A DNA stretch of 64,000 nucleotides from a phage. The stretch is from sequence record PZ674596.1; one strand, 5' to 3'. Position 1 is the first letter of the stretch. Every line of letters begins with the position of its first letter. Of the stretch, positions 41,501-44,500 are shown piece by piece. Position numbers: made by a program.

Positions 41501-44500
41501 GTTCTCTCAATAAATGTAAACTCACGCAATGAATAAGTGGTTACTTATCTTTGTGAGGTTTTTGTGTCACTCCTTTTGAATCGTGAGCATACGAACGGTC
41601 AGGTAACAAACGCATCGTATGCAAAAGTTATTGAGACGGTGCTTAAAAGCGGCGTGCAGGCTGATGATCGCACAGGCACTGGTACTTTAAGCACCTGTTA
41701 CGTTCCCTCTTACTACATGCTTACTGGTGGGACTGTGCCGCTTATTTCTGGAAAGGCGGTAAATCTTAAGCCACTGCTTGTCGAACTTGAGTGGTATCTG
41801 AAAGGCACGGGCAACATCCAATTTCTCAAGGATAACGGCGTTAAGATTTGGGATGCATGGGCCGATGAGAATGGCGATTTGGGGCCGGTTTACGGTAAGC
41901 AGTGGCGTCGATGGGAAGATACCCGCATCGTGAGCCATAGTGAATATCTGAGCAAGATCGCTACTTTCCGTGAACGCGGGTACAAAGTCGAGGGATACCT
42001 GGGTATCAGTGAAGATCGCGTAGTGCTGTCCCGTGAAATCGATCAGCTACAGCGTATTGTCGATACACTGCGCACGAACCCTACCGATCGTCGCATCATG
42101 CTTAACGCATGGAACGTAGGCGAGCTTGAGGATATGAAACTGCCACCTTGCCACTTTGTCTTCTCTTTGTGGAGTCGTGAGCTGGATTTTGAAACCCGTT
42201 TAACGATGGCAACTGACATTGGTCTTCAACACAGTCGCCTCGGTTACGAGTCTATCTACACCAAGATGCTATACGATCTGGAGATAGACGGCAGTGTTAC
42301 TGAAGCTGAACTGGATGAACTTGGAATCCCCAAACGCATCCTCAACTCCTGCCTCGTACAGCGTAGCGTAGACACTTTTGTTGGTATGCCATTCAATATT
42401 GCTGGCTATGGCATTCTCACTCATTTTCTCGCGAAGATTACGGGTCACATGGCCGGTGCATTTGTGCATTTTGGCTTTGACGTGCATTTGTACAACAACC
42501 ACATGGAAGGTGTGTGTGAGCTAATGCAACGACAGGCTCCAGAGCATTCAGATCCGGTCGTTATATTCCCTAATGAATGGTCTGAGCTGGATGATTTCAA
42601 ATGGGACGAGATTCTTATTCTTGGCTATGCCCCTCTACCGTGGATCAAGGTTCCAGTGGCGGTGTGATATGGCAAGAGGTATGTATGTCTTATGCGAAAT
42701 TGAAGGTGTGCTGGCAAATACCAGCCATCGTAAATCTGTATCTGACTCGGATGCAGGCCAATTCATTGCCGGTGATGAACTCATTTTCCCCACCAGCCGT
42801 ATGTTGCGTGGTTTTGCTCGCTCAGGGGCTGAAGTGGTGCTTATCAGTAGCCGCTCTGAAACTCTTGAAGCGCCCACTAAACGATGGCTGAAAGATTTTG
42901 GTGTTGATTACGACTGGCTTCACCTCGTACCGAATAGCACCAGTTATGAGAAGCATATTAAGCGCACATTAGCGGAGCATAAAGGCGATCTGCTTATCGC
43001 TGCGCTGGTGCACGATCCTCGACTCCGTGCCGCTTTAGCTGACTCTCATCATAGACCGGTCATCTATGAGGTGAGCAAATGAAGATGATAGCTGCTGTTG
43101 GCCGTAACTATGAGATCGGCATAGCGAACGAACTGCCCTGGCGTTGTTCTACCGATCTGAAGCTATTTAAGAGACTCACCAAAAACGCCACTGTCGTTAT
43201 GGGGCGTAAAACGATGGAAAGTCTCAAACGCCCTCTTCCAGAGCGTCATAACCTCGTTTTGACGCGCTCTCATGGCTTTGTACCAAATGGATTCTACCCT
43301 GCTGGTGTGGATGATGTGTTGCGATTACCAGAGCCTGTGTGGGTGATTGGCGGGGAACAAATTTACTCGCTATTCATGCCGCATGTTGAAGAGATTTGGC
43401 TCTCCCACATCGGCGTTGATGTGCCAAACGCCGATGCATTCTTCCCGGCAAGCATGATGCGTAATTTAGGCTTTGTGCCTGTTGAAACAGCTTATACCCA
43501 ACGAGCCAGCGAGGAAGAGCCTGGCTTTTCGCAGATCGTATACAGAAGGTCGTAATGGATTACCGGATTGGGATCACTGGTGCTCAGGGCAGTGGGAAAA
43601 CAACCCTGGCTAAATATATCGACAAACATTACGGAATCCCTTACGTGGATGCTGGTGTCGGAAGTTTGATGAGCCGCCTCGGTGTTCGAGTAGGTGATTC
43701 TATGCCTCTATATGAGCGGCTTCAGATTCAAATGGAAATAGCAAAGCATATAGAGCTACTTACGCGTGGTGCTGAAGGCTTTGTTATCGATCGCACACCT
43801 GCTGATGTTATGGCCTACACGTTGGATTTGGTCGGCCATACAAATGAAGATCGGTGTATTGAGTTAGCCCTCGATATCGAAAAGTTTTGCCACAAAACTG
43901 CTATTTCAAACTTTAACGCCATTGCTGGCCTACGCCCGGGGGGCGCTCTCTCAGAGCGAGATTACTTGCGGTCACAACGAGCATCATTAGACCGTCTGTA
44001 TGTCGCTCGTATTGATGCGTTGATGTGCGGGGAACTGACAAAAATTCACCTGCATCCGCAAAGGGGAGATCTGCAAACCTTCGTCGTTTCCAACCGGTAT
44101 CGCACAGTTGAAGCAAGAGCCAGATCAGTGATGAGAATGCTAGATAACGCTGTAGAAAAGATAGAAAACCGGTTCTGTGGCCGAGTGACCGTTCATTAGA
44201 AATTGTTCGCCTCTTCGACATTGCGACAATAAAACTCTCAAAATGGGTTAAGGATAAAAAATGTTTAGTGAAATGTTGCTTGAAGATGAACTGGATCGGA
44301 AAACAACAGAGGCTTTGATTCGTGTAGCGGACGAACATTCCCGGTCGCTTATGAGCGATCGAGAGGCTCGTCTGGCTATTCGTGCCATATTCGAAACTGC
44401 GCAGGGGCTTGTTGGCGCACAAGTAGGTGAAGCCATTAACATCGCCATGTCTCAGTTCAGTGAAGACAGTAAAAAGCCTCTGTTTCCTATGCATTTGATG

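Follow-up and report, generated by a model that had tools for sequence, protein, structure and literature searches.

A predicted ThyA-type thymidylate synthase with two ordered insertions in an SSU5-like phage-plasmid

Results

The phage DNA considered here, a stretch of 64,000 nucleotides from sequence record PZ674596.1 (hereafter the window, to which all nucleotide positions refer unless another record is named), carries at 41564..42667 on the + strand a single uninterrupted open reading frame (ORF) of 367 residues that runs from a GTG codon to a TGA stop at 42665-42667 and is identified as thyA by PF00303, by TIGR03284 and by public annotations. The best explanation of the gene as a whole, to which we give a probability of roughly 0.85, is that it encodes a catalytically competent ThyA-type thymidylate synthase (TS) of an SSU5-like phage-plasmid, translated from GTG 41564 and bearing two ordered additions on an unchanged core. 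The enzyme would convert dUMP and 5,10-methylene-tetrahydrofolate to dTMP and dihydrofolate.

PF00303 is the only Pfam family matched, in separate stretches of the protein (E=2.6e-78; 263 bits against a threshold of 24.3), and the NCBI TS equivalog TIGR03284 scores 219 bits against a cut-off of 108.35. The narrower NF00249x equivalogs stay under their cut-offs, as expected for a split match, and PHROG 160 is matched at E=1.8e-94. Identity to Escherichia coli ThyA is 44% over the aligned columns, that is, over the core. Both motifs ADENGDLGPVYGKQWR and KLPPCH are found, the second holding the catalytic Cys196 (codon TGC at 42149..42151, + strand), which is the equivalent of E. coli Cys146 and occupies an invariant column in the alignments. 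Taken together, the invariant columns pair E. coli R21 with R36 of the window protein, E58 with E74, W80 with W96, W83 with W99, Y94 with Y110, R126/R127 with R176/R177, C146/H147 with C196/H197, Q165/R166/S167 with Q266/R267/S268, D169 with D270, N177 with N278, D205 with D306, H207 with H308 and Y209 with Y310. Among these, all residues that bind the dUMP phosphate are invariant (R36, R176, R177, R267 and S268, for E. coli R21, R126', R127', R166 and S167), and those for folate binding and hydride transfer are present (E74, W96, Y110, D270, H308 and Y310). The C-terminal tail KVPVAV is likewise kept, the aligned columns reading PVA(V/I), and the uracil-selecting position, N177 in E. coli, is an invariant Asn278 within PFNIA.

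A monomer model built with AlphaFold2 (AF2) from a 91-sequence alignment has a predicted local distance difference test score (pLDDT) of 94.9 and a predicted template modelling score (pTM) of 0.93. Foldseek matches it to E. coli TS at E=4e-31, with a template modelling score (TM-score) of 0.94 when normalised to the target and 0.68 when normalised to the query. The modelled fold is that of TS, with a core undisturbed by the additions. TS is an obligate homodimer whose active sites are shared across the interface, and the conservation of the cross-subunit residues R176 and R177 is consistent with a dimer here too.

At 367 residues, the protein exceeds the 264-residue ThyA of E. coli by 103, the extra residues being counted as 34 in a first insertion, 51 in a second, 15 in an N-terminal extension and 2 near the C-terminus. 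Searched with HMMER against PDB sequences, it aligns in three blocks, residues 18-118 with E. coli 3-102, 157-204 with 107-153 and 261-367 with 160-264, which places the insertions at residues 119-156 and 205-260. In the 91-sequence alignment, canonical 264-residue ThyAs have 4 and 5 residues where the window protein has 38 and 56, and 2 where its N-terminus has 17. A first-pass annotation had described a ThyA-like protein with the catalytic motifs ADENGDLGPVYGKQWR and LPPCH, about 100 residues longer than canonical ThyA through two insertions that alignment to ThyA structures should locate. The motifs are there, with all the E. coli ThyA residues kept, and the alignment does locate two in-frame insertions, though together these supply about 85 of the 103 extra residues, the rest coming from the N-terminal extension and the two residues near the C-terminus.

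Insertion 1 (residues 119-156; 41918..42031, + strand), a small alpha/beta unit, lies in the loop after YGKQWRxW and is modelled with a pLDDT of 94-98 as three strands (117-124, 141-146 and 152-159) and two short helices. Insertion 2 (residues 205-260; 42176..42343, + strand) takes the place of the hairpin tip in the two strands after the catalytic Cys, and the model, with a pLDDT of 95-98, predicts three helices (209-225, 231-242 and 247-253) between lengthened core strands. The N-terminal extension (residues 1-17; 41564..41614, + strand), absent in E. coli ThyA, has a pLDDT of 68 over residues 1-10 and is the fastest-evolving part of the protein, with a non-synonymous divergence (dN) of 0.28 from Salmonella phage SSU5. 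Against the same phage, insertion 1 has a dN of 0.035, insertion 2 one of 0.136 and the core one of 0.063, while synonymous divergence (dS) is saturated; both insertions are under purifying selection. They are also found in all the SSU5-like ThyAs of Klebsiella, Raoultella, Providencia, Morganella and Xenorhabdus (55-88% identity). Given this in-frame conservation, a dN far below the saturated dS, a pLDDT of at least 94 and the undisturbed core, the insertions are real protein, in frame and conserved.

No Pfam family covers the additions and, by Foldseek, no PDB chain does. Searching Pfam with insertion 1 alone gives only a chance-level match to Sedlin_N (E=0.11) and with insertion 2 alone gives none, and a PDB sequence search with insertion 2 alone gives no match at E up to 10. 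A profile restricted to insertion 2, run against 1.84 billion representatives, finds ten proteins at E up to 1e-3, eight of them thymidylate synthases; too much variation in the middle of the insertion makes this search insensitive. The remaining two matches, to a repetitive LysM protein and to a protein with multiple helix-turn-helix (HTH) motifs, are weak and seemingly spurious. Since the profile finds essentially only TSs, insertion 2 appears to be specific to TS and not a borrowed domain. Its end (LDELGIPKRIL) has an HTH-like signature, which is probably why the multi-HTH protein matched, but we rejected an HTH reading, as the would-be recognition helix is the core beta-strand 258-270 in the model. 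Literature searches on SSU5 and TS, on insertions in phage TS and on jumbo-phage ThyA found nothing on these insertions.

The distribution of the insertions places the window protein in a wider phage family. In 49 of the 91 aligned homologues, site 1 holds 24 or more residues or site 2 holds 33 or more, and as a rule both are enlarged. Homologues enlarged at the two sites share W-x-D-T-(R/K)-(I/V)-V, (R/K)-G-Y and V-V-x-x-R-E in insertion 1, and S-R-E-L-x4-R and L-D-x3-I-P-x-R-x-L flanking the variable middle of insertion 2. Outside the SSU5 group, the nearest relatives in culture are Enterobacterales jumbo phages at 38-41% identity, namely SPN3US, the Erwinia phages Machina, Huxley and Wellington, and Cronobacter phage CR5. 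The best structural matches in BFVD are long jumbo-phage TSs, such as that of 201phi2-1 (457 residues; query-normalised TM-score 0.83), and within the set searched jumbo-phage TSs are the closest structural matches that extend past the core. Three metagenomic examples with insertions lie on contigs of 104, 292 and 356 kb whose gene content resembles that of large phages, with many small ORFs that have no Pfam match alongside genes for thymidylate kinase, ribonucleotide reductase, NAMPT, PhoH, T4 RNA ligase and NAD ligase. We infer that the window protein belongs to a phage ThyA lineage common to SPN3US-like and other jumbo phages.

Translation is predicted to begin at a GTG codon. There is no in-frame ATG ahead of the conserved core, the first Met codon lying in YYMLTGG. 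The first-pass annotation had likewise seen no ATG near the expected start and had pointed to GTG 41564, downstream of a palindrome. This codon begins 16 nt past the last base of the palindrome ATAAGT-GGTT-ACTTAT (41533..41548). Five nucleotides upstream of it, a Shine-Dalgarno sequence GAGG (41555..41558, + strand) can be read, in which G41555 and G41557 are invariant among the aligned relatives. In an alignment of seven relatives, the start column has GTG in the window and in phage Cyrano and TTG in SSU5, pLAO4 and Klebsiella p23-2; two Klebsiella elements of 62% identity have a deletion of 12-14 nt that puts an ATG four codons downstream, right after a GAGAG of their own. We assign the start to GTG 41564 because of the GAGG at 5 nt, the GTG or TTG in this column in the relatives and the matching 367-residue annotations in public records. 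Among enterobacterial genes, starting at GTG or TTG is nothing unusual.

The palindrome proves to be one copy of a recurrent intergenic motif with a consensus of roughly GATAAGTA-(2-8 nt)-TTACTTATC. Its right half TTACTTA (41541-41547) is invariant in all seven relatives, down to a ThyA identity of 62%, in a spacer that is otherwise poorly conserved. The window has five copies of the pattern TAAGT-N(2-8)-ACTTA where 0.32 would be expected, a count that none of 100 shuffles reached, and all five copies (3533-3550, 10110-10127, 17570-17583, 26677-26690 and 41534-41547) lie between genes; half-sites are found at 97-105, 22686-22694 and others. ORFs of at least 90 residues cover 83% of the window, and outside them fall all six exact TTACTTATC sites and 12 of the 13 occurrences of the 8-mer TTACTTAT. 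The motif is often followed by TGTG and a -10-like hexamer (TATAAG, GAGAAT or TATATT) within 5-8 nt. Though a 6-bp AT-rich palindrome could by itself be due to chance, the invariant TTACTTA, the five copies where 0.32 are expected and the intergenic placement argue that this one is not. What the first-pass annotation had tied to the start of thyA is thus real and conserved, but it is a genome-wide intergenic motif with five copies in the window. It is probably an operator or promoter element for a putative regulator of the SSU5 phage family, marking several transcription units, and it would act as a regulatory site at the DNA level, outside the mechanism of start-codon choice. The motif may help in understanding how SSU5-like plasmid-prophages keep their lytic genes silent.

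Two further elements lie between thyA and the gene upstream, which encodes a MazG-like protein. Directly after the stop of that gene begins an imperfect copy of the motif (TAGGTAGTTATCTA; degenerate copy at 41396-41412), which forms part of a promoter-like TTGTAG-17 nt-TATATT (41396..41425, + strand). All seven relatives keep the TATATT and parts of the motif unchanged, and a consensus promoter scan did not call this element on the + strand; from its sequence, we infer that TTGTAG-17-TATATT may be a promoter. A terminator scan identified an intrinsic terminator at 41461..41487 (+ strand), with an 8-bp stem (six GC pairs) followed by a T-run. All relatives have a hairpin and T-run at this position, the sequence of the stem differing in the Klebsiella elements of 62% identity. 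The promoter-like element stands about 35 nt upstream of this conserved terminator, and the sequence between them is poorly conserved. The two could give a short transcript of about 50-60 nt, or could form a control point for antitermination or attenuation. Transcription of thyA itself may start from a factor-dependent promoter at the motif or may depend on regulated read-through.

The surrounding genes suggest a supply of deoxynucleotides. Upstream of thyA are nrdA and nrdB, together with the MazG-like nucleoside triphosphate pyrophosphohydrolase of 289 residues (40523..41392, + strand; PF01503, E=1.3e-8; PHROG 671, nucleotide pyrophosphohydrolase, E=1.1e-47), which has the same annotation in the Cyrano and SSU5 records. 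Downstream, the ATG of a 137-residue HAD-type phosphatase-like protein (42669..43082, + strand) begins 1 nt past the thyA stop. This protein matches PF25109 (HAD_PNKP) at E=8.1e-5, under the curated cut-off, and PHROG 5387, of unknown function; its gene sits between thyA and folA and is translationally coupled with both, and it is conceivable that it is a nucleotidase of the thymidylate module. The start of folA, encoding a dihydrofolate reductase (DHFR) of 158 residues (43079..43555, + strand; PF00186, E=1.6e-34), overlaps the preceding stop (ATGA). The DHFR stop is in turn overlapped by 1 nt by the gene for a P-loop kinase-like protein of 214 residues (43555..44199, + strand; PF13521, AAA_28, E=3.5e-10). 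Public records name the latter 'AAA family ATPase' or 'ABC transporter ATP-binding protein'. With a weak resemblance to nucleotide kinases (PHROG 2107, thymidylate kinase, E=1.5e-9; TIGR02173, (d)CMP kinase, E=2.8e-6), it is a candidate for the dNMP kinase of the module. In our proposal, thyA would be the first gene of a tightly packed, translationally coupled run of four (thyA, the HAD-like phosphatase, folA and the P-loop kinase), and this run, together with nrdAB and the MazG-like gene, would form the phage's own supply module for deoxynucleotides, specifically thymidylate. Tandems of thyA and folA have been noted in phages and SSU5-derived plasmids (PMC7725336). The Klebsiella plasmid pMB7868_2, a relative of 62% identity, has a DUF2591 gene between nrdA and nrdB (stretch L003, 304-708) that is absent in the window and in SSU5, and for pLAO4 the PLSDB gene table, which is incomplete and was not checked against the DNA, lists no nrdA or nrdB upstream of the MazG-like gene. 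The nucleotide-metabolism block may thus be variable among SSU5-like elements.

Escherichia phage CMS-2020a matches the window over the region 41400-42800 at 99.6% identity, phages Cyrano and PhiR41_1 match at 97% and Salmonella phage SSU5 at 78%, and on the strength of these identities we consider the window part of an SSU5-type phage-plasmid. A tblastn search with the window ThyA matched 919 plasmid records, about 700 of them at an identity of at least 60%, with Klebsiella, Escherichia, Enterobacter, Salmonella and Citrobacter as hosts. The plasmids among these roughly 700 are nearly all non-mobilizable and about 105-115 kb long, and the gene is labelled 'thymidylate synthase'. The public coding sequences of SSU5, Cyrano and many plasmids are 1104 nt long with a 367-residue product, the same as in the window. 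The gene is therefore already annotated in public records and is an ordinary member of a common family of enterobacterial phage-plasmids. The Cyrano orthologue (OV696614.1; stretch L001, 6164-7267) carries the label 'ThyX Thymidylate synthase'. The window protein has no ThyX (Thy1) domain, its single Pfam match being PF00303, of the ThyA type; the Cyrano orthologue is likewise a ThyA-type enzyme (PF00303 only), and its label is a misannotation.

Discussion

Some points weigh against the interpretation offered here of a catalytically competent TS enlarged by two additions. The literature searched gave no enzymatic or genetic data on this protein or on any ThyA with two insertions; a terminator precedes thyA, yet the scan found no sigma-70-like promoter on the + strand between the two; and conservation of sequence alone cannot formally tell a TS from a dUMP hydroxymethylase. 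To our knowledge, no sequence rule cleanly separates these two enzymes, and the protein might be a dUMP hydroxymethylase of the TS superfamily, or another enzyme that modifies pyrimidines at C5, feeding modified thymidine into the phage DNA with the MazG-like, phosphatase and kinase proteins serving the same pathway. The neighbourhood, with its NTP pyrophosphohydrolase, TS homologue and phosphatase-like and kinase-like proteins, is reminiscent of the enzymes encoded by phages in which a canonical base is replaced; the label thymidylate synthase is routinely given to TS-like hydroxymethylases, and the insertions would otherwise lack an explanation. We nevertheless hold this to be quite improbable, as the protein passes the TS equivalog TIGR03284 and keeps every folate-binding and hydride-transfer residue of E. 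coli TS, including the C-terminal PVAV. Its core identity of 44% to E. coli ThyA compares with only 11% to a bona fide hydroxymethylase, gp42 of phage Acj9 (from BFVD), and where dCMP hydroxymethylases have Asp, at the position of E. coli N177, it has Asn278. The elements moreover replicate as plasmids in ordinary hosts. A further argument comes from the DHFR encoded in the same operon: hydroxymethylation releases tetrahydrofolate and requires no DHFR, whereas only oxidation of the folate calls for a co-transcribed DHFR, whose presence argues for methylation, makes a hydroxymethylase role unlikely and would lend indirect support to the formation of dTMP and dihydrofolate. The notion that the extra length is an artefact, be it through a frameshift or misjoined ORFs, through decay to a pseudogene or through an intervening element (intron or intein) left untranslated, has a certain precedent, in that phage thyA and td genes are known to host group I introns and inteins and a distant homologue does contain an intein. 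That homologue, P0127, a metagenomic protein of 821 residues, has insertion 2 as well as a full intein (Intein_splicing, Hint and LAGLIDADG) from about residue 320, near the end of the first TS block. In the window, by contrast, there is one unbroken ORF, and the insertions, at 38 and 56 residues, are too short for an intein, have no intein motifs and match no Pfam family. The same architecture recurs in hundreds of independent records and the insertions are conserved as far as the SPN3US-like phages, with dN far below dS inside them, purifying selection and a pLDDT of at least 94. The single ORF, the conservation, the dN/dS and the pLDDT led us to reject all of these origins, including the frameshift or misjoining that the first-pass annotation had named as its refutation, and we regard the probability that the length is artefactual as negligible.

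Other possibilities concern the start and the palindrome before it. Translation could begin elsewhere than at GTG 41564, either at GTG 41537, which opens the longest ORF, or at TTG 41576, which shares a column with the ATG start of the 62%-identity Klebsiella genes. The former is the only GTG inside the palindrome, where the title of the first-pass annotation had put the start, but it is GTA in Cyrano (97% identical), differs in all other relatives and has no purine-rich tract or Shine-Dalgarno sequence upstream. TTG 41576 lacks a Shine-Dalgarno sequence of its own, the GAGG being 17 nt away, and its column reads CTG in SSU5 and CTT in p23-2, which are non-start codons. Both seem unlikely to us, and we retain GTG 41564, with the palindrome outside the gene. 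The palindrome, for its part, might act in the thyA leader as an RNA hairpin that lets TS repress its own translation, a mechanism reported for the TS mRNAs of other organisms. Human TS is known to regulate itself by binding its mRNA, the palindrome lies 16 nt upstream of the start, and a hairpin of 5-6 bp is possible in the minimum-free-energy fold. However, the fold of 41525-41600 does not stand out from shuffles of its sequence, 37 of 200 being as good (z=-0.93), the motif stands in at least four other intergenic regions, before unrelated genes, and its spacer length ranges from 2 to 8 nt. An Rfam scan of the start region 41350-41700, which did not extend to the DNA encoding the insertions, gave no match at E up to 1. 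A riboswitch, leader or autoregulatory hairpin at the start was dropped on the z-score and the lack of an Rfam match, and we rate the hairpin as very improbable; with neither fold nor Rfam support, and with the motif recurring between genes, the palindrome is best read as a DNA site.

As to what the insertions do, the dimer interface of TS is formed by a beta-sheet that includes the hairpin after the catalytic Cys, and the tip of this hairpin is far from the active site. The additions would leave the chemistry unchanged and add surface, most plausibly for stabilising the dimer or for contacts with other phage proteins of nucleotide metabolism. Our best guess is that they form a peripheral ordered module serving dimer stability or partner contacts. 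A more specific and rather doubtful proposal is that the two together make up a phage-specific module on the TS dimer, one that either docks the enzyme to phage nucleotide-metabolism proteins (DHFR, the P-loop kinase and NrdAB) in a metabolon channelling dTMP synthesis, or protects it against a factor, made by the host or a competitor, that is directed at canonical ThyA. If true, either would explain why large phages and phage-plasmids keep a decorated ThyA despite the copy in the host. As a discovery, the gene carries little weight, being a well-annotated TS, and the feature is less unusual than the first-pass annotation implied, the same 367-residue product being annotated in SSU5, Cyrano and hundreds of plasmids. 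What it brings out is a phage ThyA lineage, spanning SSU5-like phage-plasmids and many jumbo phages, with two ordered insertions of about 35-55 residues at fixed sites that no solved structure covers. As TS is a drug target as well as a textbook enzyme, the structure of these insertions would be informative.

Compared with known systems, the window protein shares with E. coli ThyA (264 residues; PDB IDs: 1TYS; 2TSC) the fold and the catalytic, dUMP-binding and folate-binding residues, but the E. coli enzyme has no 15-residue N-terminal extension and has 4 residues in place of 38 at site 1 and 5 in place of 56 at site 2. Enlarged enzymes are known elsewhere. Human TS (313 residues) has an insert of about 12 residues in the same loop as insertion 1, after QWRHFG, which suggests that site 1 is a known variable loop tolerating additions; it differs in having no insertion at site 2, another insert before GDLGPVYG and a long disordered N-terminus. 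The TS of Lactobacillus casei (316 residues) is the classic bacterial TS enlarged by a 50-residue surface insertion with its chemistry unchanged, and there the insertion lies before GDLG(L/P)VYG, elsewhere than both sites in the window protein. No characterised TS is known to carry an insertion at the hairpin tip, which is site 2. In its genetic setting, the gene recalls the td/frd module of phage T4, in which a phage ThyA and DHFR beside ribonucleotide reductase genes likewise give a self-sufficient supply of dTMP. T4 td has different insertions, together with a group I intron. The closest parallel to the protein itself is found in the SPN3US-like jumbo phages. The ThyA of SPN3US (YP_009153523, 338 residues) has both insertions at the same two sites, and the ThyAs of this group have the motifs W.D.k(L/V)V, GY..G, RELxxxER and (L/M)D.L.IPRR.L in common with the window protein, though the middle of their insertion 2 is shorter and of unrelated sequence, they have no N-terminal extension, and their genes stand in another genomic context.

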